Source: a virus (lineage: Duplodnaviria; Caudoviricetes). From it: 64,000 nucleotides of DNA. The translations under genes were made by a program, and so were the position numbers. The stretch is taken from positions 1 through 64,000 of the IMG/VR virus record IMGVR_UViG_2645727839_000001; one strand, given 5' to 3'. Every line of letters starts with the position of its first letter. Position 1 is the stretch's first letter. The notes below the pieces were generated by a model. That model was not told where the DNA came from. It did no database searches and worked only from the letters and a program-made list of their open reading frames with translations. This document shows, one piece after another, positions 4,808-62,466 of the stretch.

Positions 4808-4876
4808 GTTGTTTCTCTCTTTGTGTAAGTCAGTGGTGACTTATTAACGACCCCCAAAAAAAGAGGGTCGTCATAA

Positions 4877-5443
4877 TTAAGGTGTAACTGTCGCTGTTGT
4901 ATCACCGTAGATAAACAGAAGACCATCTTTGCTAAGGTCTGGGTAGCCTTTGAAGTTCGCTTGGTATACACGCTCTTGATCAAGTGTGTAAGCGAAGTTC
5001 ATGCCGCCCGGAGTTGCCGCAAGTGGAATGGTTAAATCTTCTGATTTGTCAGTGTCAGCTAAGCCGATTGGATGCAGGACAAGCTCTTTTGCAGAAGACA
5101 GAAGATCGGCACCAACCGATGCGCCCACTTCTACTTTCTTCTTGTCTGGATCTGAACCATCAGTAACCAACGTTGCGCCTGGCATAATCGTTACTAGGTT
5201 CTCAATCGTAGTCTCAACCATTGGCACAGATACGGTGATGTTACGACCCGTTAGGATCTCTTTAACTACCGTCTCACCAAATTGGTCAACTGTGGTTTCG
5301 TGAGTTGAAGTAGTTACCTCAACCTCTACGCCACCAGCCGTTAGACCTAGATCTTGACCATCATAAGTGACTCGACATGTACCAAGTTTAATGTTCTCGG
5401 TACTAGAGCCTGTGGCTCTTGCTGTTTTAGCTTTTGCAGCCAT
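4877..5443 (-). CDS. Major tail tube protein
   Basis: NIKLGTCRV..DLGLTAGGVEV..VDQFG motifs; position; start reassigned to ATG 5443 with GGAG RBS. Confidence 0.85.
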   Translation of the reverse strand: MAAKAKTARATGSSTENIKLGTCRVTYDGQDLGLTAGGVEVEVTTSTHETTVDQFGETVVKEILTGRNITVSVPMVETTIENLVTIMPGATLVTDGSDPDKKKVEVGASVGADLLSSAKELVLHPIGLADTDKSEDLTIPLAATPGGMNFAYTLDQERVYQANFKGYPDLSKDGLLFIYGDTTATVTP

Positions 5444-5853
5444 TAGTATTCTCCTTTGAAAGAACAAACTACATCAAAATTAACGGACGCTTCGTATAAG
5501 CCCGACTCTTGCTTTGGATAAACCAAAGGCTCATGACGAGCAAGAAACTCCACAATTCTGACGGAATCAGTCTCTAGATCTCCGAATTCAAAACCTGATA
5601 GAGCCGCTGTCACTTGGCGCATTACTCGAGACGACTTAGCAGGGTTGTTACTGCGAAATAGAATCTGAGTTGCGCCAGCGTACATGCCCGTATAGTTGTT
5701 TCGGTTTAAGGTTTGATTAGCGGCAAACAACAAGCCCTCTTTTACTTTCGCTGGCATGAAACCAACAAAGACCGTTTGCCCAATCTCTGGGTTAAAATCA
5801 ATCTCTGCGTCAGTACCAACCAACCTTTCTGCTAAGAAGTCTTGCAGTCTCAT
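5443..5853 (-). CDS. Tail terminator/completion protein
   Basis: 136 aa directly upstream of tail tube; synteny. Confidence 0.6.
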   Translation of the reverse strand: MRLQDFLAERLVGTDAEIDFNPEIGQTVFVGFMPAKVKEGLLFAANQTLNRNNYTGMYAGATQILFRSNNPAKSSRVMRQVTAALSGFEFGDLETDSVRIVEFLARHEPLVYPKQESGLYEASVNFDVVCSFKGEY

Positions 5854-6320
5854 CCTTTAATCGCCTTTTTAACCGCTTTCTTTGTTTCTCGAATGGCTTC
5901 GTCTTCAACTGCGTACAAGGCTCGCTCTACGAATTTGTTCCCTACACTAGCTCGAGGGTCTTCTGAGGCAACTAACGTGGCTTTATAAGCTGATAGTTCG
6001 CCTAGATTGTATTGTGATTCGTGAAGCCAGATTGAATAGTCGTAGTCCTGCCCCGAAAACTGTCGTAACAAATCCGGGTCCACACCTACCGTTATCTCTA
6101 CTCGTCTGTTTTGCCCTGTTCGTTTTTCTTGAGAGACGATGGCATCTTCAACGTGAAAGTCTTCAACCGGAACATTCAGCTTCGCAAGCTTTTCAACTCT
6201 AGCGGCATAACGCCTCATAACGTCAAGTGAGTGCTTTTGCACTCGTTCACCAATACGATGCAATCGAGCCATTATCTTGTCCGATTCCATCGACATACCG
6301 ATGCTCTTCTTAATCGCCAT
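5850..6320 (-). CDS. Neck/tail-completion protein (HK97 gp10-like)
   Basis: AKLNVPV..YSIWLHE..KFVERAL pattern; synteny. Confidence 0.62.
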   Translation of the reverse strand: MAIKKSIGMSMESDKIMARLHRIGERVQKHSLDVMRRYAARVEKLAKLNVPVEDFHVEDAIVSQEKRTGQNRRVEITVGVDPDLLRQFSGQDYDYSIWLHESQYNLGELSAYKATLVASEDPRASVGNKFVERALYAVEDEAIRETKKAVKKAIKG

Positions 6321-6696
6321 AAACGTTATCACCGTCAGCTTGTTGCGCTTGCAAACCTACTTCGTAATGAACTAAGTCGCCCAAAAGGTCATACAGCTCT
6401 TCAACGGTGACCACCTTTAGCTTTCTGCGTTTGATGATCATCATGTCACTAACCTTGACCTTGGAGCGTGGTGAGATACAAATCTCAACATCCGAAGTTT
6501 CCTGTCGTGCCATTGATTTACTCGCTGAGCGGTCTACTCGAATCGATACTTCCTTATCTTCTTCCTTGAACTTAAGAATCGTAATCGGGTAAACGCCCTG
6601 CTTTCTAAATCTGGCTTCACCGTATCTCGTAAAACCAGCCGCTCTATACAGAGCACCTTTGGCATTAGGAACGAAGCTGCTACTCATACACGCCAT
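6310..6696 (-). CDS. Putative head closure protein
   Basis: 128 aa beta-rich; synteny in neck cluster. Confidence 0.5.
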   Translation of the reverse strand: MACMSSSFVPNAKGALYRAAGFTRYGEARFRKQGVYPITILKFKEEDKEVSIRVDRSASKSMARQETSDVEICISPRSKVKVSDMMIIKRRKLKVVTVEELYDLLGDLVHYEVGLQAQQADGDNVYGD

Positions 6697-6736
6697 AAAA
6701 ATATTACCTCTCTTTTAGAGTTAAGTCACCAGTGAC

Positions 6737-7465
6737 TTATACAACAAGCAGAGCTTTTGTGGCGAAATGAAAGGTAGACCCCTCCAATTCAAAGTAACGG
6801 TTCAAATCTACGCTATCACCATCATTGTCACTACCCGGATTGTAGATCTTCGCAGTCTCCGCACCCAGTGACATTAGAATGAAAAACATAGTTTGACGTT
6901 GGATGGTTGTCATCATCCAATTCAGCTTTCGCTCTGCGGTATAAACTGAATCATAACCTCGACCCAAAGCATCAACGCTCTTCGGTGAAAAGGTCATTAA
7001 TAGCTTTTCACGCTCACTAAATAGAATGTGGTCTTCTCGACCCTCTTTCTGGTGAACACGAATTGATATCTTCAAGCGCATCTCTCGATACTTACGCAAA
7101 AGAGACTGAATATCTTCTCGCATTCTGAACTTAAGAGTCATCAAGGTATCACGCTCAATCGCTCTCAAATGCTCTGTGAACGCTTCGAACGAATCAATAC
7201 TAGCTGACTGCTCTTTATATGATTTATTCGCAATCTCGAAGCTTAGAGACTTTGCCTGACTAGCACTCTCCGACACTGTTGCAACAATGTCTGATTCTGC
7301 GCCATGCAGTACCGCTTCCAGTCTCGCTTTCAACTTATCCTCGGAGCGTGGTGACATTACACTCTGATCATACAGAGATGACGCCAACACACCCTTTAGG
7401 CCAAGAAGAAAAGCCTCATATCGACCGCGCATCAAGGTAAGTCTTTCTTCTAGTCTTTTCATCAT
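6737..7465 (-). CDS. Hypothetical virion morphogenesis protein
   Basis: Long helical ORF coupled to the upstream gene in the head-tail cluster. Confidence 0.45.
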   Translation of the reverse strand: MMKRLEERLTLMRGRYEAFLLGLKGVLASSLYDQSVMSPRSEDKLKARLEAVLHGAESDIVATVSESASQAKSLSFEIANKSYKEQSASIDSFEAFTEHLRAIERDTLMTLKFRMREDIQSLLRKYREMRLKISIRVHQKEGREDHILFSEREKLLMTFSPKSVDALGRGYDSVYTAERKLNWMMTTIQRQTMFFILMSLGAETAKIYNPGSDNDGDSVDLNRYFELEGSTFHFATKALLVV

Positions 7466-8891: not shown

Positions 8892-8968
8892 ATCTATATT
8901 CCTTATGGCAAAAAGGGGAGAGAAGTTACCTTCCCTCCCCTCAAATAAGTCACTGGTGACTTATCAAA

Positions 8969-12649: not shown

Positions 12650-12761
12650 CAGTTAACCAGTTGGTAAATTATTTCCCATGACATAAGATAAGTCACTAGT
12701 GACTTATCTTATTAGGCATAAGTTAAGCCAGTCATGTTAAAAAGTAAAGTATAGAGGCTAT

Positions 12762-13046: not shown

Positions 13047-13081
13047 CAAATTGGTAAGTCACTAGTGACTTACCATATTCA

Positions 13082-19341: not shown

Positions 19342-19422
19342 AAAACAGTTCTTCTTGTTAAGTCAGTAGTGACTTATACTATCTATAAGAAATTGTACTA
19401 GCAAGGAACACAGGGAGAAACA

Positions 19423-24801: not shown

Positions 24802-24932
24802 GAGTTCTCTCTGTGTGTAGTGGTGTTAGAGTAGAATACATCGTAACAAGTAGAACGCAATAGTACGATTTCTACCCTACTTGTATAAGCTGTGGTTAAC
24901 GTGTACATAACCCTGTATAAGCTGTTATATCT

Positions 24933-25059: not shown

Positions 25060-25200
25060 AACTATATGATCTTATTCAGGAAAAACAGCCCTAAAATATT
25101 AAAATATAAGATCTTAAAAGAATAGATCTTAAAATAGATCTTAAAATATATTCTTTATAGAAAATAAAAATAGCAGGGTAAATTTTAGAGATAAGTAACT
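25060..25200. promoter_or_regulatory. AT-rich origin unwinding region with AGATCTTAAAA repeats
   Basis: Three AGATCTTAAAA units and dense GATC sites next to the iterons. Confidence 0.7.
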
Positions 25201-25446
25201 GGTGATTATTTCACCTAACAGATCTAGCGATCGGTTATTTGAAAAACTACTACTCGATCGTGAAATACTTCGACGCTCTGAATCGCACGCTAAGCACTGG
25301 TTCTTGAATAACTTGAACACTGAGTCAAAGAAATATAAAAAACTCGATAGAGAGCGATTTAGACGCGTTCTGATAGATTTACAGCGCAAGATCATAATGC
25401 AAGATCGATAATGATCAAAAACCGATCATCTCATTGATTTTAAAGG

Positions 25447-25530
25447 ACAGCGAATCTTTCTACCTTTAAATGTGAAACGGATCACAGCGAATTCTTATAC
25501 CTGTTAACGTATACAGCGAATTCTTCTACC
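25447..25530 (+). repeat. Three additional control iterons
   Basis: ACAGCGAAT..TACC at 25447, 25484, 25513. Confidence 0.85.
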
Positions 25531-25561
25531 TTTAAAAAAGGAGGCTTAAAGCCCCCTTAAA

Positions 25562-26152
25562 TCAATCACTTGCAACCATATTCTGCTTGGCATTTAGCAT
25601 CTGATAGAACTTAGCTCGGCTAATTCCGAGGCTCTTAGCAATCTCCGTCTTTGAGCTTCCCTGGCTCACCCATTCGCTAACTTCCTCTAGTGTGAAGTCA
25701 ACGGTGACAGCAGGACGGCCTAGCACCTTGCCCTTGGCTTTAGCTTTGGCTAACCCCTCTGCTTGTCGCTCTAGAATCAACTCACGTTCCATTTGAGCTA
25801 CTGTTGCCAAAATTCCTAGTATTCCTTTCTGAGTTGCGGTCATTTTGCTGTAGAACTGCAAACCATCTTTGTGAAATACGATATTCACGCCTCGAGCTGT
25901 TAATTCTTCAACAAGCTTTACGGCATCGCCAGCACCGGAACGACAAACGCGATCTAGTGAGTGAATGTGGAGCGTATCGCCATCTCGTAGATATTTTAGA
26001 CAACTTTGCAATTCAGGACGCTTAATTGTGCTTGCTGATAATTTTTCCTCAAAAACACGATCAAGCTGTACACCATCTAATTGCCTGTCTGTGTTTTGAT
26101 AAGCTGCTGATACACGAATGTACCCAACATTTTGTCCATTTGTAGTACTCAT
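25562..26152 (-). CDS. Serine resolvase
   Basis: GYIRVS, RPEL..CL..LRDGD, SLDR, ERELILERQ, GRP, C-terminal HTH. Confidence 0.93.
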   Translation of the reverse strand: MSTTNGQNVGYIRVSAAYQNTDRQLDGVQLDRVFEEKLSASTIKRPELQSCLKYLRDGDTLHIHSLDRVCRSGAGDAVKLVEELTARGVNIVFHKDGLQFYSKMTATQKGILGILATVAQMERELILERQAEGLAKAKAKGKVLGRPAVTVDFTLEEVSEWVSQGSSKTEIAKSLGISRAKFYQMLNAKQNMVASD

Positions 26153-26737: not shown

Positions 26738-27046
26738 TTACAAGCAAACTCCGTGACTAGTACCGTCCGGTAGCTCGATATCGATTTTCAGTTTACAGCC
26801 AGCTGCTTCAACGTAACGCTTCAAAGAAGTCAGACGTAGGTTCTGACCTTCCTTCTCCAAGTTCGCTACTGTCGGTTGAGTAATACCCATAGCTGTAGCA
26901 AGCTCAACTTGAGACAGTTTTGCAATCTTGCGAAGCTCAGCTAGTTGAAGGTCAAACAGCATTTCCTCTGTTTTAGCTTTTGCTGCTTCTAGCACCTCTG
27001 GTGCCATTTTCGCGTCAAGTGCGCTTAGTGGATTGCTCTTAGCCAT
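26738..27046 (-). CDS. higA: HigA-type XRE HTH antitoxin
   Basis: LSQVELATAMGITQPTVANLE HTH; downstream of toxin. Confidence 0.85.
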   Translation of the reverse strand: MAKSNPLSALDAKMAPEVLEAAKAKTEEMLFDLQLAELRKIAKLSQVELATAMGITQPTVANLEKEGQNLRLTSLKRYVEAAGCKLKIDIELPDGTSHGVCL

Positions 27047-27386
27047 TTTTCAGCTCCTCTAGATGCTCATCGTACTCTGCATCGGCCATTGGGATCATGT
27101 CTTTGTAGAATCGTTTATCTCCGGTTTTATCTCCACCGCACAAAACGATACCTGTTCTAGTTGGGTCAAAAGCAAAGAAAATGCGAATTGGTTTTCCGTT
27201 GCTCTGAACTCGTAGCTCTTTCATGTTTGTGTGCTTTGAGCCATTGAGTGTGTCAGCGTGAGGTCTTGGTAACTGTGGACCCTTTTCGACTAACAAACCC
27301 AAAGAAGCACGAACGTTTATTTGGTCATCTGGCTCTAAACTTAAGAACCAATCGTCAAACAACTCTCTAGTTGATACGTCCCACAT
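27039..27386 (-). CDS. higB: HigB/RelE-family toxin
   Basis: GPQLPRPHADTL.GS, MKELRV, RIFFAFDP.R, GGDK. Confidence 0.88.
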   Translation of the reverse strand: MWDVSTRELFDDWFLSLEPDDQINVRASLGLLVEKGPQLPRPHADTLNGSKHTNMKELRVQSNGKPIRIFFAFDPTRTGIVLCGGDKTGDKRFYKDMIPMADAEYDEHLEELKNG

Positions 27387-27554
27387 AACTCTCTCTGCAA
27401 TGAATTATAGAACATATTCTATATAGATCAAAGTCTATATTCAACATTAGCCATCATGTTTTTGTCACGTATTGTGTAACTTGGTTAAGCGATCATGGTT
27501 GACCATCTCTTATGCTTGTATAATCATAAGGTAACCCCTCAAAGAGACTAAGAG

Positions 27555-27962
27555 ATGGATCCGAAGAATCTAGACAAGGTAATCAACAAGATTTCCAAAA
27601 TGTCAGAAAAAGAGATGAGTGATGTGGCTAGTGAAATGGCGCGTTATGAAGGCGACCGAGAAGCTAAAGAGTTTGGTATCGAACGACTAACCATTCTTAC
27701 CTCTTCTGACACTGAGATACTCCTAATCAAACCAAATCAGTTGTTCCCATCATGGCAGCTCAATTTATTCGGGAGTGGCAGTATTAATTTTGATGGCCAG
27801 CCGGATTTCGAATGTAGTGAAATTCCCGGAAGCCTTTATAGATTCGCTGTCAAAGACGGAAGTGTGACTTATTGGGCTGATGCTAAGGATAGATTTCAGT
27901 TAGACAAGATTTCTAAGTTTGTCGGAGTTGAGATAGTTAACCCAATTGAAACTAGCTCATAA
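27555..27962 (+). CDS. Hypothetical protein
   Basis: 135 aa ORF with own promoter-like sequence and terminator. Confidence 0.6.
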   Translation: MDPKNLDKVINKISKMSEKEMSDVASEMARYEGDREAKEFGIERLTILTSSDTEILLIKPNQLFPSWQLNLFGSGSINFDGQPDFECSEIPGSLYRFAVKDGSVTYWADAKDRFQLDKISKFVGVEIVNPIETSS

Positions 27963-28032
27963 AAAAAGGGCGCATAATGCGCCCTTTTGGTTAGTCGGCC
28001 CTACAGTAGCTCTTCATTTTCAAAACTGAACG

Positions 28033-28470
28033 TTATGTCAGAGAAGCAGAAGAGCTGATCGACTTCTTTATGATTTTTGCTCTTGTGTTGTCGTAAATTA
28101 AGTTGAACAAAAATGCGTAAACCGTGAGGAAAAGTGAAACGCCAACGTCCATCCAAAATGCTTCCATAAAACCAACACCTAAGATGTGTGCTATCACTGG
28201 TATCGTTAGAACCAACAAGCCAATCTCAAATAAGGTTACGTGAAACACGCGAAACAAAAATGTACGTTTGGTTTTATCCCCTTTTGCGAACTGATCAAAA
28301 ACCCAGTTGAAAACAAAGTTCCAAATCATCGCTATCGTAGCTACCATGATCATAGTACCGGACAGTGCGCTAGTATCATGGTTCGTAAATAGTGCTAATC
28401 CAACTATTGATATTATTACGGCTAAAACTTCAAATAATATCGCTTGAAATACTCGCTCCAGAGTTCCCAT
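28033..28470 (-). CDS. PACE family efflux transporter
   Basis: ERVFQAILFE, WNFVFNWVFD, RVFHVTLFE, YAFLFNLIYD. Confidence 0.88.
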   Translation of the reverse strand: MGTLERVFQAILFEVLAVIISIVGLALFTNHDTSALSGTMIMVATIAMIWNFVFNWVFDQFAKGDKTKRTFLFRVFHVTLFEIGLLVLTIPVIAHILGVGFMEAFWMDVGVSLFLTVYAFLFNLIYDNTRAKIIKKSISSSASLT

Positions 28471-28721
28471 TTGCTTAATCTCTCTTTGTGTAGTTTGCAC
28501 TAAGTGTGCTGAATAAGTGAGAGCGATTATATGAGTACGTTTTCGGGGTTTGTCTCAATCTAAAGTATGAGATGTCGAGTTAATTAAAAAATATGAACAG
28601 AAGTTTTTATTTTCATTCGAAGGTACAATTGAAAAATAGGGGTAAACTTACCCCTTACCGATTTATCAGCGTCTTTCGTCTTAATAATACAGTCACTAGT
28701 GACTTAGTTAAAGGGTGATTT

Positions 28722-29030
28722 ATGGCAGATAAACCGAGAGCTGGCCCTGCGTGGGCTGCGCAGATGGCGACAGTCATTGTGACAAGCGTAACGATGATGG
28801 TGGGATGGATTGTTTTTACGGTAAACCAGAACCAAATTTCAATCGTTGCAATTGACCAAAGGCTTGAAGCTATTTCGGAACGAAGTGATATGAGAGCAGG
28901 TCATGTGGATGATGAACTCTCAAGTATCAGCAAGAAACTCGACAGCTTGACTGACATTTTAATTGGAGAAATTAAGATTCAGTCAGTTGCTAAGGTTTCT
29001 GAAGATGACAACAAGGATGCAGGGGGCTAA
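28722..29030 (+). CDS. Single-TM coiled-coil membrane protein
   Basis: N-terminal hydrophobic helix then coiled coil. Confidence 0.6.
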   Translation: MADKPRAGPAWAAQMATVIVTSVTMMVGWIVFTVNQNQISIVAIDQRLEAISERSDMRAGHVDDELSSISKKLDSLTDILIGEIKIQSVAKVSEDDNKDAGG

Positions 29031-29053
29031 GCCCCCTTTTTTATATTTGAGGA

Positions 29054-30016: not shown

Positions 30017-30224
30017 GTAAAAAAAATCCCCACGAGTAGTCGGTCGTGGGGATGTTGTGCAACAAAAGTTTCTTTTGTCCATAGATCGTTTAAATGAATA
30101 TATCTCAACACAAAGGTTAAGTCACTAGTGACTTTTGTATTTTCTTGGCATCATAAGCTTGTTTGTTCATTGAAACATATTTAGCATCGATCAATAATCG
30201 ACCATCGATCGGCGGGAGAAATAC

Positions 30225-31433: not shown

Positions 31434-31472
31434 AAAAGCCCACCGTTTGGTGGGCTTGCTTATTGAGTTAGA

Positions 31473-31982: not shown

Positions 31983-31986
31983 CTTG

Positions 31987-32654: not shown

Positions 32655-32879
32655 AGTTGTTCTCTTTGTGTAGTGTTAGTGAGCTTATATTGTGCAGTGT
32701 TTGACTAGGCATTACTAGTATAAGAAGTGGGGTTTTAGGGGGTATTCCGTAGGTATAAGGAAAGCGATTTTTTTATAGGCTGGGACTGGAACCTTCCGGG
32801 TCGAAGCATCAAGCCCGTATATGGGGAAATGACAAAAGCTAAATGAGGGGAGCTATCAACTCCCCTTGTTACTTAGTTG

Positions 32880-34851: not shown

Positions 34852-34894
34852 AGTGTTTCTCTTTGTGTGGTGTAAACCTATCCGTGTGTGCTTT

Positions 34895-34962
34895 AAAAAA
34901 ATAGGGGCCGCTAAGCCCCGCACACACAAAGAGATCGGAGCGTGTCGCTCGTCTCAATTCAT
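34895..34962 (-). ncRNA. Candidate sRNA-1 with anti-leader seed
   Basis: Promoter 34969-34991, 5' hairpin, exposed UUUGUGUGUG, GGGGC/GCCCC terminator with U-tract. Confidence 0.55.
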
Positions 34963-36559: not shown

Positions 36560-36612
36560 GGTGTTCTCTTTGTGTTTGTCTTGTTGACGAGATAGATAAT
36601 AAGGAACGGGAA

Positions 36613-36645: not shown

Positions 36646-36664
36646 GAACGTTAGTGGTTATCGA

Positions 36665-39600: not shown

Positions 39601-40285
39601 CATCAGAGTTTGTGACCTCTTTGAACTCATACATTTTGCCGTCTTTAGCGCGAAGTCGAATGGTTCCCGGCTCGCCCTTTCCAACGTGGCCAATAGACTC
39701 ACCTTTGACGTAAAGCTGTCCATCATCTTTGTTGAAATTAGCTTCTGGTTTGAAATCGACACCAAGATCAGGTTGTGAAGGAGTAGTACCTACCTCTTCA
39801 TCGGGTGTAGTTGGCTTCTCACCCGGCACCCAACCATCAGTGTTGTCTTCTGGTTTGGTACCATCTTCTGGTTTAGGGGTGAATTCAAAATCAGGGTCAG
39901 TAGGTACTTCTAATCCAAAGTCCTTATCTCCAATGAAGTCAGGTTCACCCGGCCATATTGGAAGCTCGACGCTAGGGTAATCTGGAACTTCGACATCAGG
40001 AGAGCCGCCGCCCGGTAGTGGTGCAGACTCTTCATCACCCGGAGTTGTTGGGGTTCCCGGAGTCCAACCGCTATCTGGAGTAGTTGGTTTAGATCCCGGT
40101 GCGATATCACCATTATTGTTTTCTTTGTCTGAGCCATCTACCCAACCGTCACCATTATCTGGGTTGATAGGATCAATGGGTTCAACTACAGCTGGTGGCT
40201 TTTCTGGTGCCAAAGTGTCTCGACTATCATCGTTACAACCGACGAGCGAGAGCCCTATGGCAATGCACAGTATTGATTTGTTCAT
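36665..40285 (-). CDS. Giant Pro/Asp/Gly repeat lipoprotein
   Basis: Lipobox LVGC; many DPDNGNGW repeats; three internal YYNGG domains. Confidence 0.8.
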   Translation of the reverse strand: MNKSILCIAIGLSLVGCNDDSRDTLAPEKPPAVVEPIDPINPDNGDGWVDGSDKENNNGDIAPGSKPTTPDSGWTPGTPTTPGDEESAPLPGGGSPDVEVPDYPSVELPIWPGEPDFIGDKDFGLEVPTDPDFEFTPKPEDGTKPEDNTDGWVPGEKPTTPDEEVGTTPSQPDLGVDFKPEANFNKDDGQLYVKGESIGHVGKGEPGTIRLRAKDGKMYEFKEVTNSDGSKSYYNGGYKVTVDENGKVDWNYVGDLDLDMPSLVEPGTKPTEPDNGNGWVPDAPTTTPDNDVEVGIERPDNGTKPITPPDTNPDWEVGEEGNWNGDSDYEIMPPIENPLPPFLDIGVDFNPEIYLEQGQLYYKKTSIAHVGLSHKNEVTLRLRGGEKLVFRIVELGNGETAYYNGGFMISVEDDGLLNWVYVGDAELDGDFNITPPTVNPIPPFLDIGTDFKPDLRVEAGRVFYKKTSIATFGNGLRGEVNVHTVNNHHFTFKVIENEDGTKSYYNGGYIVTVENDYLNWVYVGDIDLDSDFEFTPKPEDGTDVINPDNGNGWMPGTKPEDNTGDVKPGTKPINPDNGNGWKPGTKPEDNTGDVESGIKPIDPDNGNGWKPGTKPEDNTGDVAPGEDMTNPDNGNGWKPGTKPEDNTGDVAPGEDMTNPDNGNGWIPGKPNGGEPDLPWAPGTKPIEPDNGNGWVPGKPNGGDPDIPWAPGLTPDDSTNGDGWVPGTDKEDDSIFIGDKDFGLVEPIDPDFEFTPKPEDGTDMTDPDNGNGWRPSKPGQGEPDIPYEPGIKPIEPDNGDGWVDGSDKEDNSVEVAPGIPGEDMTDPNNPDHAVPGRPSTPDGETPINPPSKPSDEIINPDNGDGWKPGTKPEDNTGDVESGIKPIDPDSGNGWKPGTKPEDNTGDVESGIKPIDPDNGDGWKPGTKPEDNTGDVESGINPIEPDNGNGWVPGEEVDNKEDEVTVPKPGTPGEEVDKPLDPDSGVVPGEKPVDREDNEVGIEAPNLWLEAEAGLGLPDRSIHKVCEDKYGSNIIDVSCQYDDGVNALEIDIGFYMGNSHNPSGYNYGWASFKISSESINNGEMLSPKFIAFVEDGSQTSTFENIDTTVFWNNDTSTLFAETRRAARVGGHIMMVSNNFVDEYTKVPHAWTPMNLLEISKEPNQAILNTKYSIGFDAKTKGFQKGKFGDAKLFSNMHELFKEAYPSQS
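37430..38650. repeat. 84-bp (28-aa) tandem coding repeats, two clusters
   Basis: Unit PGTKPEDNTGDVESGIKPIDPDNGNGWK in near-identical copies. Confidence 0.85.
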
Positions 40286-40299
40286 ACTAATCTCCAACC

Positions 40300-40815
40300 C
40301 TAGAATCGGTAGCCGGCCATTAACATCAAGCTAGAGTAATTATCTAACTCGAAATCGGTGAGGTTGAAGTTGTATTGAAGACGAATGAAATGGTCTTGAT
40401 CGTCAGTTGTGTATTCAGCGCCTAGACCCAAAGCAGGTTTGAAGTCGCGGTTAGAATCACAAGTTGGACAATCCCAATCGATGTGTTGGAAGTTAAACCC
40501 AACCTTAGTGAAAAGATCGAAGTTTTGGTTGATCGCATAGTCAAACTTACCAGCGATAGATAAGTTCCACAGGTGCTCAGTATCGCCTTGATTGCGATTG
40601 AAGAGGTGTGTAGTTTCAACTTCTACAGACATTACGCTGTCGATCTCATGACCGAAGCCTGCCGCCACAGTAACAGGGTTACCTTTGTAGTCGTCTACGA
40701 ATGTTACGCCAGTACCGCCGTAAACATAAGCTTGAGGTGCTAGTGTTTCAGCTTGTACAGATAGAGTTGCTCCGGTCGCCATAAGAATGGCTGTTGCGAT
40801 TAATTGCTTTTTCAT
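40300..40815 (-). CDS. Outer membrane beta-barrel
   Basis: Signal peptide, C-terminal MAGYRF. Confidence 0.85.
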   Translation of the reverse strand: MKKQLIATAILMATGATLSVQAETLAPQAYVYGGTGVTFVDDYKGNPVTVAAGFGHEIDSVMSVEVETTHLFNRNQGDTEHLWNLSIAGKFDYAINQNFDLFTKVGFNFQHIDWDCPTCDSNRDFKPALGLGAEYTTDDQDHFIRLQYNFNLTDFELDNYSSLMLMAGYRF

Positions 40816-41429: not shown

Positions 41430-41592
41430 AGTGCTCTCTTTGTGTAGTGAGTTCGTTTTCAATGAGATCATTATGCTCGATTCTTAGTGGGAGATCGGGC
41501 TACCTCAATGAAAGCCCGCTAGTTTAACCTTATTTCATATTCGGTCAAGCGGTTCAAAAAATAATCAACTCTTATACTAGCCTTCGGAACTC

Positions 41593-42722: not shown

Positions 42723-42769
42723 ACATCCTCTTATAAGTCATTGGTGACTTAACATATTAAACAAAAAAT

Positions 42770-44157: not shown

Positions 44158-44437
44158 AGTGATTTTCTCTCTCTTTGTGTGTGATTCTTATAGTAACAGT
44201 GAGCATGTGGCATGTAAACGCAATGAAAAAATAAACTTAACTTAAGAAATAAACTTTATTTCTTGCAATTATATTACCTTTTCTGTGAGCAATTCTAAGA
44301 GCTTTTGATAGATAACTAGAGCAAGTGCTCGAGATATGCACTCCCAGATGCTTGAGAGCGCACAGAGCGCGTTTAAATGAGTGATTTATTGAATTGATAG
44401 AACTATCAGACAAAAGAAAAGGGACTTAAAGTCCCTT

Positions 44438-45093: not shown

Positions 45094-45146
45094 AGTGCCT
45101 CTCTTTGTGTTTTATTAGTCATTGGTGACTTAACAACTGAGGCGTG

Positions 45147-46052: not shown

Positions 46053-46148
46053 AAGTGCCTCTCTTTGTGAATTAGTGTATTTCGTTTCGATGAGTACATA
46101 TTAAGTGACTTGAATTGGCAGTCCTACTCAGCCACTTAATAATGCCTG

Positions 46149-46727: not shown

Positions 46728-47252
46728 TTACATCGACATAATATATTTTTTATTTGAAGCCGACTTTACTTTGATTCTCTGCATCAAGGTGCCACCTTCG
46801 GGAACAATTGAGTCTGAACTTACTTGCCACGTAATGCCCGAGACAATGAAGTACTCACCTGCCGGAACATCTTCAAACTCGAATGAACCTGTAGCGTCAC
46901 ATACGGATACTAGGTTGTAATTAAGAAATTCAGCCGGAGCTTGAGGTGGTGTGCCACCAGCAGAGAAAGGACTTGTTGAGCGAAAGCCCTTAACAGTATT
47001 GCCGTAGATAATGGAAATACGTTCTTCTGAGTAAGGTGATACAGGGACCATATCTATTTGGTAGCCTGCGCATGTTTTAACTTCACCGCCAACGGTACGT
47101 AGGAATGCTTGACCACGCACTGTTGCATCACCTTCTTCTTGTGACCATTCAACGTCTGATGGTGCGAAAGTATTTTGCATTGGGGTAACAGTTGCGCAAC
47201 CTGCAAGGGCTATTGAACCGATCGCTACGGCGATAAGTGATAATTTTTTCAT
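46728..47252 (-). CDS. Lipoprotein with beta-sandwich domain
   Basis: Lipobox LAGC; CDATGSFEFEDVPAGEY. Confidence 0.75.
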   Translation of the reverse strand: MKKLSLIAVAIGSIALAGCATVTPMQNTFAPSDVEWSQEEGDATVRGQAFLRTVGGEVKTCAGYQIDMVPVSPYSEERISIIYGNTVKGFRSTSPFSAGGTPPQAPAEFLNYNLVSVCDATGSFEFEDVPAGEYFIVSGITWQVSSDSIVPEGGTLMQRIKVKSASNKKYIMSM

Positions 47253-47325
47253 GGTAATTGTTCTCTTTGTGCTTAGTGTGATGCGAATATTAGAGATTAG
47301 TGGATGGGTTTTCAATACTACAGAC

Positions 47326-47430
47326 ACAACAAAGCCGCCCGACTGGGCGGCTTTTATGCGTAGGCCACTACCCTACTGAACAATTAAAATTGTTCTACAC
47401 AAAGAGAAACCACTAAAAGTAGTTTCACCA
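47326..47430 (-). ncRNA. Candidate sRNA-2 with anti-leader seed
   Basis: TATACT -10 at 47436-47441; three hairpins plus GCCGCCC/GGGCGGC terminator; 19-nt perfect complement to leader 62262-62280. Confidence 0.65.
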
Positions 47431-47449
47431 GTGCGAGTATATGCGGTTC

Positions 47450-47998
47450 TTAAGATGCATTCAACCGAAAGTAGCCTAAACGCTCGCCTTCAAAGAGCGA
47501 ACGAGCCAAAACATCAGTGTCATAGTCGGCTCTGTGAGCTGATTCTGGGTCGTAATCCACACCCATAGCCCAACATAACTCTGCTAGATTGGGTACTTTA
47601 CCCATTGAAGTTGCTGTTCTCCCCTCAACCATAGTGTCATAGACTTCAAACTGAGGAACTTCAAAGCCATCAGCCATCAAATTGAAAGCAATGATTGGGA
47701 AATCGAACGAATAGCCATTATGCGCAACGGCATAATCGCACTTCTCAAGAATCTTAATTAGCTTAGGCGCAACCTCTTTGAATGCAGGTTTGCCTTTCAA
47801 ATCATCAGCACTAATGCCGTGTACAACTTGAGCCTTTGGATCGATTGCTTTAGGCGTCCAAATCAATTCGTTCCATGTAGTTCCGACCTGACGCCAACCT
47901 GCTTCTTGCTTGCGGTATACGCCAACAGCAATCTCGATGATCTTATCTTCTTCAACGTTTAAGCCTGTGCTCTCAACGTCCAGAACAGCAACTATCAT
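47450..47998 (-). CDS. DEDDh 3'-5' exonuclease (DnaQ-like)
   Basis: LDVESTG, VHGI, AHN..FD, HRADYD. Confidence 0.9.
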   Translation of the reverse strand: MIVAVLDVESTGLNVEEDKIIEIAVGVYRKQEAGWRQVGTTWNELIWTPKAIDPKAQVVHGISADDLKGKPAFKEVAPKLIKILEKCDYAVAHNGYSFDFPIIAFNLMADGFEVPQFEVYDTMVEGRTATSMGKVPNLAELCWAMGVDYDPESAHRADYDTDVLARSLFEGERLGYFRLNAS

Positions 47999-48675: not shown

Positions 48676-48741
48676 GTGATTTCTCTTCGTGTTAAGTCAG
48701 TAGTGACTTGTTATTATATGAGTATAAAGATGGCGGAGCAA

Positions 48742-52771: not shown

Positions 52772-52845
52772 ATTTATCCTATTTCCATAACCTAGAGTAA
52801 GTCACTAGTGACTTACTCTATCACTTAAGAAGAGGCAGTGAAACA

Positions 52846-54786
52846 TCAGGACAATGCATGTCCCTCAATTCGTGATAACCCACCCTCTTTAACAATGGTC
52901 ACACTGTTTGAAATCCAAGACTTCAAATCGGTGTGAGAGATGACAATTGCTGTACCTCGCTCTTTAGCCTTTTCAGTCAAGATAGACATCAAACGCTCAA
53001 GACCAGATTTGTCGATAGCCTGATCGATTTCATCTGCGATTAACAGTTCAATTGGTTTTGATGCTCGACTCGATACCAAGTCTTGCAGTGCCAGATAAGT
53101 CGCTAAACGTACCTTACGCTTTTCACCACCTGACAGTGACTTGAATGACTTACCGCCAGTCAGTGATTCTACCGCAATTGAGAACTTCTCTTTCAAAGAG
53201 CCTTTTGAATCTTTAGCCAGAGTTGTCCATACAGCAGTAATGTTGCCGTCCGACATAATAGACAGGTAGTGAGAAGTTCGATCATTTAGATATGGGGTTA
53301 CTTGATCAAGTAGATGAGCGCGAACACCTGCCGGACTAAACACTTTCGCTGTGCCTTCTGCCACTAACAAGTCATATTCAGCCTCTTCAACTTTTTTCAC
53401 GGCTTCTAACCGTTCTGCAGCCAGCTCATCTTTCTGTTTCTCAAACTTGGCCACCATACTCGTATGAGGATTTTTCATCGCCTTTGTATCTTTCAACAGT
53501 CCGGCGCGAGTCTTTAGTTTGTCTTTGAGTTTCGTTGCTTCTGTACTAGCAATGGTTAGCTCATTCTTGCGCTCTGATAGCTTGCTGAGAGCGTTTTTAT
53601 ATTTCGTTGTGTCGAAACTAGAGCTATCAATTCCCTCTAGCTCAGAACGCAATTCACGCACGATTTTAGCTTGAGCCGCAATGATACGTTTTTGCTCAAT
53701 CATTTTATCAGTGGCTTCTTTGACTTTGCGAGAGTGAGCCTTGATGTGGTTCTTGCGAGCATCAGGATCATCGATATCTTGTCCACACTCATCACAAGAC
53801 GGTGACTCTGCGCTACTAACCTCTGTAAGCTTAGCGTTTGCCGATTTCAATTCAGCTTCTAGGGTATCTAAAAGACCTTTTTCTCTTCGCAGTGAGCTGG
53901 TGGAGCTTTTGAGTTCACCGTCTTTAACTCGGTGGTCGGCTGCTTTTTCGTTTGTAAGCTCAATAGCCTTCTCGAGCTTCGCAATCTTGCCATCAATCTC
54001 TTTGATTTCTGCTGATACATCCTTATCCTCCGCACTCGATAGCTTTTTCTTCAAAGCTATCACCTCAGTAGTGAGAGTTTTCAGGGATTCGGCTTGCTCA
54101 ACTTCCCATTTTTCAACTTGAGCCTTAACTGATTCAATATTTGAATCAACCATTGTAGTTTTCGAGTCGATACCGCTAACAACGCCATTGGCCTCCGACA
54201 CCACGCCTTTAGCTTTGGACGCCTTTTTGGTTGCAATTGTGTAGCCTCGTTGAAGACGATCAATGCCTGCGGCCTCTTCAACGATCACTTTAAGTGCTTT
54301 GTCGGTCATAGCTGGCAAATCTACTAAGTTCTCCTGACCTGCATAGATAGCAGCGCAGAATACATCCTTAGAACAACCGACCAACTTAGATACAGCCTCT
54401 TGAGTGAGCTTATCTGTGCCTAGAGTTTTATCAACCCATGCCCCCTCTTCGCTCTTTTCGAGCATAAGACGGTTCTTATTCTCTTTGTGTTTACGGTGAC
54501 GAGAGATACGCCATTGGATATCTGCATCTTCAATTAAGATAGATACGCGACATCCTTTACCTGCGGTTTTATTCACTACGTCGTCACCGGACTCACCTCG
54601 AGCCGTGATGCCATAAATCGCCCACGATAGACTATCTGCTATCGTAGACTTACCTGCGCCATTACTATCTTGAGATGTATCATCTCGGTTCTCACCTTGA
54701 AGAAGAACAAGACCACGCTCGTTCAACTTCAACTCTGCTTCCCCTATGGCGAGAAAGTTATTAATTTGGGCTTCTAGTATTTTCAT
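52846..54786 (-). CDS. SbcC/Rad50-like SMC ATPase
   Basis: NGAGKS, CDEC zinc hook, LSGGE, LLIADE, ISH. Confidence 0.9.
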   Translation of the reverse strand: MKILEAQINNFLAIGEAELKLNERGLVLLQGENRDDTSQDSNGAGKSTIADSLSWAIYGITARGESGDDVVNKTAGKGCRVSILIEDADIQWRISRHRKHKENKNRLMLEKSEEGAWVDKTLGTDKLTQEAVSKLVGCSKDVFCAAIYAGQENLVDLPAMTDKALKVIVEEAAGIDRLQRGYTIATKKASKAKGVVSEANGVVSGIDSKTTMVDSNIESVKAQVEKWEVEQAESLKTLTTEVIALKKKLSSAEDKDVSAEIKEIDGKIAKLEKAIELTNEKAADHRVKDGELKSSTSSLRREKGLLDTLEAELKSANAKLTEVSSAESPSCDECGQDIDDPDARKNHIKAHSRKVKEATDKMIEQKRIIAAQAKIVRELRSELEGIDSSSFDTTKYKNALSKLSERKNELTIASTEATKLKDKLKTRAGLLKDTKAMKNPHTSMVAKFEKQKDELAAERLEAVKKVEEAEYDLLVAEGTAKVFSPAGVRAHLLDQVTPYLNDRTSHYLSIMSDGNITAVWTTLAKDSKGSLKEKFSIAVESLTGGKSFKSLSGGEKRKVRLATYLALQDLVSSRASKPIELLIADEIDQAIDKSGLERLMSILTEKAKERGTAIVISHTDLKSWISNSVTIVKEGGLSRIEGHALS

Positions 54787-56540: not shown

Positions 56541-56608
56541 TTTGACCTCTTTGTGATTCTCTTACATAAGTAAGCAGTGACTTAATAATATACTTAGGAA
56601 TAAGGTGT

Positions 56609-59146: not shown

Positions 59147-59155
59147 GTAATCACC

Positions 59156-60088: not shown

Positions 60089-60138
60089 TTTTCACCTCAA
60101 AGAATAAAGGGGCTCAACGCCCCTTTCTCAACTAGACA

Positions 60139-61014
60139 TTAACCGTCTAAGTCAGCCAGTAACTCATCTAGCTCGTCCTCGTTGATATCATCTTCGATTG
60201 GAGCTTCTTTCATTTCTGGTACTTCTTCGAAGTCAGCATCTACCGCGTCGTCTTTCAACTCTTCGGCAATTGATTTGGACAGTGACTTGTCTTCTATAGC
60301 ACCCATCTCACCTGCACCTGCTGTCGCTGGCGAAGATTTTGGAGCCATCAAAAGACCTGCTGCTGAACCAACGGCTGTTAGTGCTTTGTGCAGACCTGAT
60401 TCATTTTCTTGCGACACGTATTCGTCTAGGTTAAGAGCTTTACCTAGTACCTCTTTCGGTACAGATTCACTCTTAGCTGCCGGAATAACCGTGTACTTGG
60501 TATCGTTACGACCACTACCCTCTCGGCTAATCGTCAAATCAACACCTTCTTTCAAGTCTGTGATGTCACCGTATTCAGCAATGATTTCACAAATTGATTC
60601 GAAGATACCGATACCTGCTGCGATAAGAACAGGTTCCTTGTTATTTGCATCGCCACGAACGATTGCATTCATTAGATACTGTTGACCAGAGTTAGCATCT
60701 TTCAGTAGTTCAATGGTTTCATCGTCGTGAGCACTCTTGATCCCCATGCCGATTGCTTTACAGATTTCACAATCTTGACCAAACGTCTTCTCAGTACAAA
60801 CGTAAACCGCTTCTGTTTCGCCTTTGTCGTTCTTGATGTAGTGAGAACCAAAGTCATGAAAGAACTGAGGGTCGTCACCAAGACGCCAAGATGGAAGAAG
60901 ACGAATCTTTGTTTTACCGATAGGAAACTTAAAAGGACGTGCGCGACCTTTTTTGGCTTGAATTTCTTTCTGCTTCTTAGCAACAAGATCCATGATGGTT
61001 AGTGCTTTAGACAT
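60139..61014 (-). CDS. ssDNA-binding protein (T4 gp32-like)
   Basis: IRLLP, H..C..CEIC zinc site, acidic tail ELDELLADLDG. Confidence 0.72.
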   Translation of the reverse strand: MSKALTIMDLVAKKQKEIQAKKGRARPFKFPIGKTKIRLLPSWRLGDDPQFFHDFGSHYIKNDKGETEAVYVCTEKTFGQDCEICKAIGMGIKSAHDDETIELLKDANSGQQYLMNAIVRGDANNKEPVLIAAGIGIFESICEIIAEYGDITDLKEGVDLTISREGSGRNDTKYTVIPAAKSESVPKEVLGKALNLDEYVSQENESGLHKALTAVGSAAGLLMAPKSSPATAGAGEMGAIEDKSLSKSIAEELKDDAVDADFEEVPEMKEAPIEDDINEDELDELLADLDG

Positions 61015-61200
61015 ACGTGTTTTCCTGTGTAAATTAAATTAATAGGGTCAAGACTTAACGACCACGTTCAGGCACTGAGTATAAGGTAAGTCACTAGTGA
61101 CTGAACAGTGTTAATTTTACGAAACTGAGACAGGTGAAACAAATAGGGATTTAAGAAAAACCAGAAAGGAAAGCCCCTCTTTTGAGGGGCTGGGGGTTAG

Positions 61201-61563
61201 CTATTCCGGTGCAGTCATGTCGGATAAAGCAGAAGACGTATTGGAGCCTACCTCTTCTGCATAGCTATTCGTTGCCTTGCGAGTTTTGGCGATCTCATCA
61301 AGGATGTTGTTTGGGTTGTGAGGGCTGTATGGATTGGTTGGGTCCATAAGTTGCTCTGCACTTGTTAGTCGCCTTTTTGGCGGCTCACTATAAGAATTCA
61401 AAGATGGTATTTGAAAATCTCGTTTTTTCCTATTTGTTACATTCAACATATTAAGTCTGGTTTCGTTATGGCGTTTACGTTCTGTTAGCCAAGCAATGCA
61501 AAAGAATATATCCAAACCAAGCGTGACAAAGAGCCAGAATGAAAGACCACCTAAAAGTTCCAT
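61201..61563 (-). CDS. N-terminal TM hypothetical protein
   Basis: Hydrophobic N-terminus; overlaps upstream gene. Confidence 0.5.
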   Translation of the reverse strand: MELLGGLSFWLFVTLGLDIFFCIAWLTERKRHNETRLNMLNVTNRKKRDFQIPSLNSYSEPPKRRLTSAEQLMDPTNPYSPHNPNNILDEIAKTRKATNSYAEEVGSNTSSALSDMTAPE

Positions 61564-62261
61564 ACAAACACTCTATCCAACTCAGGCCGACTTGCTCTTG
61601 AGAAGATAGCCGGACTTGTGAAGATTTGCGGGTCTAAGTCCATAAGTGGGGAGTTTTGATGAACAGAGAGATTGCCAACAAGAACAAATGTCTTAACACC
61701 TGCTCTGATCATCTTCTTGTAATCGACACCAAACATGTTGCCGCCACGTTCGTGAGAAGATTCCATGTATTTGTGTGTAACCCAAGAAGCTACCACCACT
61801 TTAGGCTTAAAGTTCTTGAATGCTTTGTTGGCGTCTATCTCTACAACATCTTTGCCGTAGTTCACAGTGGGTTGATGCGCTAGACCATATAGAGCTGCGG
61901 TTGCGTACTTATGATTGTTCTTAGGGTGTTGTTGATAGTTATCAACCATTCGAATACCCAAGCTACGACCATATACCCCGTTACCTGCTCCGATTTCCAT
62001 TGCTCTGGATTTGTCTTCTGGTAAGAAGCTACTGATAAAGTTGATAAGCTCTAAAGACGGGATAGAGTAAAAAGCGTGTTTATGGCAGAAAATTCTTAGC
62101 TTACTTCGTGGTATTTCAGCGAGTACATCCATCGGGAGTACCTTCAACTGCCCTTCTTCATCAAGAAGCAAAGCCTCAACATCGCTAACGTCTTCGGGCT
62201 CTAAAATAGATAGGCTACCAAGCATTGTGGATACTTGATCAAAAAGCTTTTCTGAGTGCAT
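61551..62261 (-). CDS. Class I SAM-dependent methyltransferase-like protein
   Basis: MEIGAGNG motif I; VVVASW. Confidence 0.65.
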   Translation of the reverse strand: MHSEKLFDQVSTMLGSLSILEPEDVSDVEALLLDEEGQLKVLPMDVLAEIPRSKLRIFCHKHAFYSIPSLELINFISSFLPEDKSRAMEIGAGNGVYGRSLGIRMVDNYQQHPKNNHKYATAALYGLAHQPTVNYGKDVVEIDANKAFKNFKPKVVVASWVTHKYMESSHERGGNMFGVDYKKMIRAGVKTFVLVGNLSVHQNSPLMDLDPQIFTSPAIFSRASRPELDRVFVWNF

Positions 62262-62466
62262 GTGGTTTCTCTTTGTGTAGTGATAAGTCAGTGATGACTA
62301 ATTACATTATAAAGAAACAGAGTAGGCACTTCTACAGTCAGCAGTGACTAATATAAGATTTTATTGGGAATTTCCAAAAAACCGCAGACGGGAATTTCGT
62401 TTTCTGGGGGTGGTTAGCCCCCAAGATATAAAGAATCTTTGTTGGTTAACAGCTCTAACCTGTCAA

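Follow-up and report, generated by a model that had tools for sequence, protein, structure and literature searches.

An 11-nt leader tag ahead of unrelated genes of a Vibrio-type phage-plasmid and its exact complement in two candidate small RNAs

Shine-Dalgarno sites and unstructured A/C-rich translation enhancers are established elements of bacterial initiation, and the same region of a message can also be a target of regulators. T4 RegA is a protein that attaches to loosely conserved sites in the initiation regions of numerous early mRNAs, and CsrA controls many mRNAs through GGA motifs in or close to their ribosome-binding sites. In bacterial small-RNA regulons the target sites are usually degenerate and have evolved one by one. 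To our knowledge, the lysogeny control of SSU5-type phage-plasmids is poorly known. For the Vibrio phage-plasmid VP882, the primary paper on the small RNA VpdS is reportedly that of Sprenger et al. 2024. The passages on phage-plasmid RNAs in PMC12197685 present VpdS as an Hfq-binding, trans-acting RNA that changes the abundance of several mRNAs of phage and host, and c4, an antisense RNA encoded by the phage-plasmids P1 and P7, as one that blocks translation and acts on its own operon, icd/ant.

The locus described here was analysed in a window of 64,000 nucleotides, with the remainder of the genome used for counts where stated. It resembles c4, as that RNA is presented in those passages, in that a phage-plasmid would encode a candidate small RNA with short complementarity around the ribosome-binding site, the pairing bases lying where the fold of the RNA leaves them exposed (PMC12197685). 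Whereas c4 is presented there as acting on its own operon, a single 11-nt target here extends over about 23 unlinked units and is matched by two candidate RNAs, referred to as A and B; no similarity to c4 was found in sequence or in Rfam. VpdS is alike in acting in trans as a small RNA that a Vibrio phage-plasmid encodes, with candidates in its place here. VP882 is, however, another type of phage, and the VpdS targets are not described in the same passages as sharing one identical leader tag.

Distribution and placement of the tag

The 9-nt tag CACAAAGAG occurred 15 times in the window versus 0.88 expected, and none of 100 dinucleotide shuffles of the window contained at least 15 copies. The whole genome (115,468 bp) held 24 exact copies, comprising 17 leaders, one copy inside a SbcC-like gene and six copies elsewhere, as well as 35 copies with one mismatch, six of which were in leaders. 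Together these defined 23 tagged genes (17 exact and six one-mismatch), in all of which the tag lay on the mRNA strand 5-13 nt, mostly 6-8 nt, upstream of the ATG. The first-pass annotation of this DNA had placed the tag at 12 sites and variants before rep and at 48683; every one of them was found where it had been placed, the 12 tags on the minus strand, and the window yielded three further exact copies and the variant CTCAAAGAG beyond that list. The sites in the window are as follows, with the gap between tag and ATG given for each leader.

4817..4825, minus strand: tag CACAAAGAG, 9 nt from ATG 4807; phrog_893, tail-assembly region
24807..24815, minus strand: variant CACAGAGAG, 5 nt from ATG 24801 of the Rep3 initiator gene
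27538..27546, plus strand: variant CTCAAAGAG, 8 nt from ATG 27555 of a 135-aa ORF with no family
28482..28490, minus strand: leader tag, 11 nt from ATG 28470 of the PACE (BTP) efflux gene
32662..32670, minus strand: leader tag, 7 nt from ATG 32654
34859..34867, minus strand: leader tag, 7 nt from ATG 34851 of a 106-aa ORF
36566..36574, minus strand: leader tag, 6 nt from ATG 36559 of the OMP beta-barrel gene
41436..41444, minus strand: leader tag, 6 nt from ATG 41429 (DUF4262)
44171..44179, minus strand: leader tag, 13 nt from ATG 44157
45101..45109, minus strand: leader tag, 7 nt from ATG 45093 of the HU/IHF-family gene
46061..46069, minus strand: leader tag, 8 nt from ATG 46052 (phrog_5235)
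47263..47271, minus strand: leader tag, 10 nt from ATG 47252 (phrog_14789)
48683..48691, minus strand: variant CACGAAGAG, 7 nt from ATG 48675
54481..54489, minus strand: exact copy inside the SbcC-like gene, 15 nt 5' of an in-frame ATG; probably no leader
56547..56555, minus strand: leader tag followed by G (giving GAGG), 6 nt from ATG 56540 of the SbcD-like gene
62269..62277, minus strand: leader tag, 7 nt from ATG 62261

The PACE (Pfam BTP), beta-barrel OMP and HU/IHF-family assignments were confirmed by Pfam, and the gene at ATG 32654 heads an operon with SMR and pilin-like genes further down. Alignment of the 23 leaders extended the conserved block to 11 nt, ACACAAAGAGA. Information content was high only at −1 to +9 and fell to about 0.45 bit or less in the flanks on both sides, and within the block CAC and the flanking A were as invariant as GAG. 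The genes so preceded belong mainly to replication, recombination, regulation, maintenance and cargo, including the Rep gene and repressor-like genes, and BLASTP among the 23 downstream proteins gave no mutual match at E≤1e-3. Of the 74 genes whose upstream gap is at least 40 nt, 21 carried the tag, versus two of the 69 with a smaller gap, and it marks the first cistron after an intergenic gap. The proposal that unrelated core and cargo genes share one leader is supported by the fixed distance to the ATG, the restriction to first cistrons and the lack of relationship among the proteins.

The tag is anchored to the start codon and not to promoter-like elements. Its distance from a palindrome, P, read by eye, varied from about 1 to 39 nt, and −10-like hexamers, also picked by eye, lay at variable distances of 8-35 nt upstream of it. 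At the tag of 4817..4825, P is 1 nt upstream. This variability bears on the possibility that a phage transcription factor or a phage-specific polymerase recognises the motif in DNA, as an operator or promoter element, which the promoter-proximal location of the motif, often beside the operator-like site P, might suggest; the tag may also loosely resemble the transcribed end of T7/SP6-type promoters. We consider this very unlikely, given that only the distance to the ATG is fixed, that the motif strongly favours the strand of the gene, and that neither a phage RNA polymerase nor a sigma factor was found among the 143 ORFs scanned (PHROGs, Pfam). Very probably, the tag is the core of a leader that acts at the level of RNA.

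The tag as a probable ribosome-binding leader

The tagged leaders are A/C-rich (45% A, 23% C), nearly unstructured 5'UTRs, with a mean folding energy over −25 to +12 of −1.1 kcal/mol versus −3.9 kcal/mol otherwise (Mann-Whitney p=5.5e-8). This open structure, the position of the tag ahead of the ATG and partial pairing of GAG with the 16S tail (...GGATCACCTCCTTA, read from a Vibrio-type 16S gene) liken it to a Shine-Dalgarno site within a translation enhancer. In contrast to such a site, the tag formed a duplex of only −2.9 kcal/mol with the 16S tail versus about −7 to −12 kcal/mol at canonical sites of the same genome, and it is confined to the first cistrons of one gene class. GAG is the only part of the tag that pairs (GAGG in two copies), and the match of CAC and the flanking A to 16S does not exceed chance.

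These properties are relevant to an alternative in which the block is a lineage-specific ribosome-binding leader only, namely an open A/C-rich 5'UTR with AAGAG as a weak Shine-Dalgarno and no dedicated regulator. The Shine-Dalgarno-like spacing and the lack of structure fit this alternative, as do AGAG-type hexamers, which rank among the more frequent words upstream of ORFs in a Vibrio-type chromosome (AGAGAA 11, AAGAGA 10 and GAGAGA 10 of 325 ORFs). AAGAG-type sites preceded 16 of the 325 host-type ORFs and two chromosomal PACE homologues, suggesting that part of the motif may be an ordinary minor Shine-Dalgarno class. However, a Shine-Dalgarno role leaves the invariance of CAC and the flanking A unexplained, and 174 of 200 shuffled motifs paired with the 16S tail at least as well as the tag did.

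The complete tag is not a host habit. The first-pass annotation had named equal abundance upstream of host Vibrio genes as an observation that would overturn its reading; in four Vibrio-type genomes the tag was about as frequent as its reversed-sequence control, so it was not equally common there. It was also absent from distant SSU5-type relatives (capsid identity at most 52%), which have ordinary Shine-Dalgarno sequences. A Vibrio-type chromosome encodes a PACE protein that was the closest homologue there (63% identity); the region upstream of its gene is different, containing AGAGGA and lacking the tag, which in this one case agrees with the suggestion that cargo was fitted with the phage leader.

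GGA occurred within −20 to −1 of one of the 23 tagged leaders versus 47 of 120 other genes, and AAGAG stands in place of a canonical Shine-Dalgarno. Such a pattern might be expected if the leader served mainly to avoid recognition of GGA or GGAG, either by host CsrA or by a nuclease like T4 RegB, which cuts GGAG in Shine-Dalgarno sites. Like CsrA-controlled leaders, the tagged leaders place control at the ribosome-binding site of many mRNAs, but with the defining GGA so rare they could at most be non-targets. Mere loss of GGA would suffice for avoidance and make an invariant 11-mer needless, the phage's own structural genes retain GGAG or GAGG sites, and the PHROG and Pfam scans contained no CsrA- or RegB-like gene, so that we regard avoidance as the main function as distinctly unlikely. 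From the earlier suggestion of escape from CsrA, then, the nearly GGA-free character of the leaders stands; 73 of the 120 other genes also lack GGA in −20 to −1, and nothing links CsrA to this phage.

Two intergenic loci carrying the complement

Two intergenic loci contain the tag in antisense to their predicted transcripts.

34897..34962, minus strand: candidate small RNA A, about 66 nt, both ends inferred
34925-34933, plus strand: exact tag copy within the locus of candidate A
47325..47429, minus strand: candidate small RNA B, about 105 nt, with promoter-like site, hairpins and terminator
47398-47406, plus strand: exact tag copy within the locus of candidate B

Both candidates carry UCUCUUUGUGU, the exact complement of the 11-nt block, at 34924-34934 in A and 47397-47407 in B, and it is the sole stretch that they have in common. 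Only at these two loci was the complement intergenic and on the locally transcribed strand, rather than merely the opposite strand of a leader. Candidate A consists of a 5' hairpin, UCUCUUUGUGUGUG and a terminator, GGGGCUUAGCGGCCCC, with a U run. Upstream is an extended −10-like TGtTAATAT, seen by eye only and lacking a −35 element; promoter prediction at this locus found none, and the fold of the 66-nt RNA was unremarkable in stability (z = −1.9, matched by 12 of 200 shuffles). Candidate B has a hairpin (47426-47406), the linker UCUCUUUGUGUAG, two further hairpins and a terminator (47354-47331), preceded by a promoter-like TTGAAT-17-TATACT at 47464-47436 that matches the consensus at 9 of 12 positions; none of 200 shuffles was as stable (z = −6.4). 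In both, the complement, or seed, had an unpaired probability of 0.6-0.98 at seven of its 11 bases, with the first four paired in the predicted folds. Rfam gave no match at gathering level in the window, none with E≤1 in 34700-36100, and in 47200-47520 only sub-threshold, terminator-driven matches (best 27.9 bits versus a cutoff of 55). Both loci look like small RNA genes, with transcription predicted from these features.

The predicted pairing of the seed was stronger with tagged than with other genes. Mean seed-only duplex energies were −18.9 (A) and −21.1 (B) kcal/mol for the 17 exact leaders and −9.2 (A) and −9.7 (B) kcal/mol for 120 other genes, with a range of −15 to −29 kcal/mol across tagged leaders. 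The 17 genes ranked best by seed pairing were all tagged; since the complement is itself defined by the tag, this result is in part circular. Among the six one-mismatch leader variants, five have an A-to-G or C-to-U change, for which a G-U pair with the seed would survive; as an argument this is weak, because wobble would in any case tolerate seven of the nine possible transitions and a Shine-Dalgarno core would also forbid G-to-A. The idea that the leader is a common target of small RNAs thus gained an exact 11-nt complement at two small-RNA-like loci, a support drawn from sequence.

If the block were a ribosome-binding leader only, the antisense copies would be by-products, such as inverted leader copies or U-rich terminator tails. 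Consistent with this, the complement in A and B alike directly follows a hairpin that was also scored as terminator-like and so could sit in a 3'UTR or a weak terminator, and a 19-nt stretch of the leader at 62269..62277 is the perfect complement of candidate B, as expected of an inverted copy. The similarity between B and this leader ends, however, after the 19 nt on both sides. Moreover, by our own arithmetic approximately 10 kb of intergenic DNA, counting both strands, should contain about 0.005 copies of an exact 11-mer, yet two antisense copies were found, both flanked by a hairpin on one side and a terminator on the other. Together with the invariance outside the putative Shine-Dalgarno, this leaves a leader with no dedicated regulator plausible but doubtful.

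Near-perfect identity over 9-11 nt in the 23 leaders, a fixed place by the start codon and one gene class would also fit a translational operator for a phage or host RNA-binding protein, or the cut site of a sequence-specific RNase. The T4 RegA regulon is similar in uniting unrelated mRNAs of one temporal class under coordinate translational control by a common site over the initiation region, but differs from the present case, in which the tag is almost invariant and the sole partner visible in the sequence is RNA. An RNA-binding regulator was absent from the 93 plus 50 ORFs scanned with PHROGs and from the 67 of 93 window ORFs scanned with Pfam, which is weak evidence because many small ORFs have no family. 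A protein operator also leaves the two antisense copies unexplained, and we consider it unlikely.

A proposed joint control of the tagged genes

We propose, tentatively and with somewhat less than even confidence, an RNA-level leader together with two small RNAs that address it. The 11-nt block would head about 23 transcription units, ahead of the ATG of the first gene, and would have two roles. Its AAGAG part would act as a weak Shine-Dalgarno in an open A/C-rich 5'UTR that gives ribosomes easy access, and the whole block would be the common address of the two phage-encoded candidate RNAs, each of which would present the complement between its 5' hairpin and its terminator. Both loci would be transcribed and their RNAs would pair with the leaders. 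Pairing would hide the ribosome-binding site and alter the translation of all tagged operons jointly, repression being the more likely direction.

The occurrence of the tag and of its exact complement in two candidate RNAs suggests that the phage may switch many genes at once. An invariant tag on about 23 operons, read by two RNAs with a shared seed, could allow one RNA signal to switch a whole gene class, a possibility that we hold more tentatively still; this switching would take place during the decision between plasmid and lytic growth. New cargo would fall under phage control merely by landing behind a tagged leader. If so, one identical tag would provide simple, portable post-transcriptional control over newly acquired genes, including efflux pumps, outer-membrane proteins and a nucleoid protein, and an experimental handle on how SSU5-type phage-plasmids coordinate maintenance with lytic growth. 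Even with no regulator, the leader is compact, open and GGA-free and is evidently functional ahead of many coding sequences in a Vibrio-type host, which is of practical interest for expression design. As a separate observation, the product of phrog_14789 (ATG 47252) has an N-terminus that resembles a signal peptide.

Occurrence and position of the leader tag

A 9-nt tag recurs before the start codons of functionally diverse genes in this genome, with gene calls being crude ORF picks throughout. All twelve tag sites reported in the first-pass annotation were present, on the minus strand and 6-13 nt before an ATG, and both variant leaders that it named were recovered among six one-mismatch leaders. 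The window holds 15 copies of the tag versus 0.88 expected, a number reached in 0/100 shuffles. The 24 copies in the whole genome comprise 17 leaders, one copy inside an SbcC-like gene and six located elsewhere; of the one-mismatch copies in the genome, 6/35 are leaders. When leaders were aligned on the motif, high conservation was confined to the motif plus one base on each side, defining the 11-nt block ACACAAAGAGA, and information content dropped to ~0.45 bit or less on both sides. Paralogy was rejected as the source of the shared tag, as no two of the 23 downstream proteins are paralogous, and so was a duplicated promoter/leader cassette, as flanking similarity is lost within a few bases. 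None of the long repeat families of the genome includes the tag.

The distance from tag to ATG is tight (5-13 nt, mostly 6-8), and the orientation of a leader tag is always that of its gene. Of 74 genes preceded by a gap of ≥40 nt, 21 bear the tag, compared to only 2 of 69 close-packed genes, and with a single exception the tagged genes map to the non-structural part of the genome (24-89 kb). Taken together, these features point to a tag that belongs to the 5'UTR of first cistrons, not to a DNA promoter or operator. The spacing also argues against the rival reading of the tag as a DNA-level site, since its distances to an upstream palindrome, P (~1 to 39 nt, judged by eye on the alignment), and to −10-like hexamers (8 to 35 nt, hexamers picked by eye) are variable, and PHROG and Pfam scans found no phage RNA polymerase or σ factor. 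On the strength of these sequence patterns, we consider it very probable that the tag acts as an RNA-level leader. Among the tagged genes are rep and two HTH genes that look repressor-like (88241 and 88612, plus strand, outside the window).

An exact tag copy at genome positions 89300-89330 (plus strand; L137:5300-5330), outside the window, overlaps the annotated ATG of ORF 89300-90010; after it come the usual spacer (aaaatcact) and an ATC, and the start of this ORF may be misplaced or non-canonical.

Host genomes, phage relatives and ribosome binding

Comparison with four Vibrio-type genomes, recognised by their Qrr small-RNA genes, revealed that the motif is not equally common before host genes, and the tag was rejected as a host-wide feature. 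These genomes contained 56, 32, 28 and 38 copies of the 9-mer versus 49, 36, 41 and 47 for the reversed control, and 5, 4, 3 and 1 copies of the 11-mer versus 4, 4, 1 and 1, compared to 17 copies of the 11-mer in the phage genome. Among 301 Gammaproteobacteria the maximum was 60 tag copies, in 5.3 Mb, which holds without G045, G147 and G302, and in 400 kb of one Vibrio-type genome (G329) the tag preceded an ATG in one of six copies. AAGAG occurred at −18 to −4 in 16/325 ORFs (crude ORF call, 400 kb of one Vibrio-type genome) versus 27/131 in the phage, and the full tag in 1/325 (one Vibrio-type genome, 400 kb) versus 12/131; thus, AGAG-type sites are a minor host class and the full tag is the phage's own. 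The closest chromosomal homologue of the phage PACE efflux gene (63% identity) has a different leader. Two other chromosomal PACE homologues (L264 and L267, in Vibrio-type genomes G329 and G400; 35% identity to the phage copy) carry AAAGAGAG-type sequences 6-7 nt before the ATG, one of them, CATAAAGAG, a single mismatch from the tag, so that AGAG-type ribosome-binding sites may represent a genuine minor class in these hosts.

Megablast and blastn searches against phages and plasmids found no related sequence, and the best identities obtained in viral, genome and metagenome collections were 52% for the capsid and 44% for the exonuclease. A 15-mer scan of the viral collection returned 111 loci, of which the 80 listed were single matches on different contigs. 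The distant SSU5-type relative G001 (105,923 bp, about 50% capsid identity) has no tag copies; its ribosome-binding sites are ordinary GGAG or AAGG, and no other shared leader word was found in it. Ten tag copies occurred in 1.17 Mb of 80 capsid-linked loci. The lack of the tag in these relatives, all of them distant, marks it as what appears to be a recent invention of this lineage. Among the matches listed, a full-text literature search for the 9-mer gave only unrelated eukaryotic work, and literature on SSU5, Vibrio and phage-plasmids included none about leaders.

The tag can act only weakly as a Shine-Dalgarno sequence: pairing of its GAG with the 16S tail, whose sequence was verified against a 16S gene of Vibrio type, gives −2.9 kcal/mol versus −7 to −12 kcal/mol for canonical structural-gene sites in the same genome. 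Extra 16S rRNA pairing was rejected, as the best candidate complement, close to position 1480, is 7 nt long and was equalled or bettered by 174 of 200 shuffled leaders; rRNA pairing of the invariant CAC of the tag does not exceed chance. The tagged leaders are rich in A and C and have almost no structure (mean, −1.1 versus −3.9 kcal/mol; p=5.5e-8), so initiation on them may rely on accessibility. The near-absence of GGA from tagged leaders noticed in the first reading was borne out (1/23 versus 47/120), which is what the rival reading of the leader as avoidance of a GGA-recognising factor describes; escape from CsrA as the role of the leader is speculation.

Candidate antisense RNAs

Two non-leader tag copies are intergenic and in opposite orientation, such that the locally transcribed minus strand reads UCUCUUUGUGU. 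These are the only intergenic antisense cases of the tag in the genome, and their promoter and terminator matches are consensus matches only:

34962-34897, minus strand: candidate RNA A, 30 nt upstream of another tagged leader; small hairpin, complement, terminator with a U run
47429-47325, minus strand: candidate RNA B, 3' of the exonuclease gene; promoter-like TTGAAT-17-TATACT, 9-bp hairpin, complement in a single-stranded linker, two more hairpins, GC-rich terminator

The fold of the 108-nt stretch at locus B is unusually stable (z = −6.4). At locus A the promoter is only an extended −10, seen by eye, and the fold of a 66-nt RNA is not exceptional. The last seven bases of the seed, the 11-nt complement of the leader block, are unpaired in the predicted folds of both RNAs, and tRNA and Rfam scans gave no useful match.

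The stretch common to A and B is exactly 11 nt long, and its complement coincides exactly with the conserved 11-nt leader block. None of the rival explanations accounts for this match of boundaries, whether the tag is taken as a plain leader specific to this lineage, its antisense copies being incidental, as a protein operator, as avoidance of a GGA-recognising factor or as a DNA-level site. Over 19 nt, candidate RNA B is also perfectly antisense to the leader at 62269. Scoring of full-length RNA-RNA duplexes carried no information, since terminators pair with one another, and was replaced by seed-only scoring; in the resulting energy ranking of 143 genes, which is partly circular, the first 17 places were all tagged leaders. 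A G-U pair with the seed is kept in five of the six one-mismatch leader variants, which adds little because most transitions would preserve it anyway.

These observations raise the possibility, to which we give a little under an even chance, that the tag is both an RNA-level leader and a common antisense address for two predicted phage small RNAs. Pairing of these RNAs would occlude the ribosome-binding site and repress translation, and repression by such occlusion is the likely direction of effect. The proposed occlusion matches that by the c4 RNA of P1 and P7, as described in the review PMC12197685, which also presents VpdS of VP882, another Vibrio phage-plasmid, as a trans-acting phage small RNA. 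If true, the new element here would be the sharing of one identical tag by many unlinked operons, among them those of acquired cargo, rep and the two repressor-like HTH genes.

Between the terminator of a barrel gene and candidate RNA A lies an A/C-rich region of ~0.8 kb (35190-36000, minus strand) without an ORF of at least 60 aa on that strand. Within it, the copies of a 26-nt imperfect repeat are spaced 224 nt apart, and no Rfam family matched.

Palindrome P and the phage-plasmid background

Palindrome P (18 bp, TAAGTCACnnGTGACTTA) is more widespread than the tag:

4827-4842, 6723-6738, 8947-8962, 12690-12705, 13056-13071, 19360-19375, 42735-42750, 48694-48709, 52799-52814 and others: P sites in the window
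G001, L130 and L131: P elsewhere, G001 being the distant relative

With up to one mismatch the genome has 35 P sites, 33 of them no more than 130 nt ahead of a gene start, and with up to two mismatches 43, versus 2-12 in shuffles. P lies upstream of structural and non-structural operons alike, as well as about 10 tagged leaders. It is common to distant relatives with 39-66% G+C, including eight copies in G001 and 45 copies in 20 of the 80 capsid-linked loci, versus 0 for a control palindrome. Pairing of C6 with G9 leaves only a 2-nt centre, which suggests that P is not an RNA hairpin but a DNA operator at which a dimeric regulator of SSU5-type phage-plasmids acts.

The virus record is a single one of 115,468 bp (43.7% G+C), the window being its first 64 kb. 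PHROG and Pfam scans identified a siphovirus-type structural module, replication and recombination genes, and the plasmid functions of a Rep3 initiator with iterons and ParA/ParB genes. Cargo includes a PACE/BTP efflux protein, an SMR pump, two OMP beta-barrels, an HU/IHF-family protein, DHFR and toxin-antitoxin pairs. The capsid protein shares 43% identity with its counterpart in Salmonella phage SSU5 and at most 49.6% with capsids on Acinetobacter plasmids; among named protein relatives, those from Vibrio owensii (65%) and Vibrio splendidus (54%) come closest. We read the genome as an SSU5-type phage-plasmid and infer a Vibrio-like host. Two iteron clusters upstream of the Rep3 gene, flanking a small ORF (25141-25395), look like an iteron-type plasmid origin:

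24933-25054: iterons of ~22 bp, ACAGCGAA....TATACC
25447-25536: second cluster of the same iterons

ORF 36665-40297 (1210 aa) has no PHROG or Pfam match and consists mostly of 84-nt (28-aa) tandem repeats. An OMP beta-barrel gene stands on either side, the downstream one with the leader tag, and the region (36041-40815) may be a surface-protein cargo module. A cargo island at 26738-32654, with genes on mixed strands, encodes a HigB-like toxin and HTH antitoxin, PACE efflux, a radical-SAM protein, a ParE-like domain protein, DHFR, a pilin-like protein with an N-methylation motif and an SMR pump; a serine recombinase/invertase gene lies at 25562-26152.
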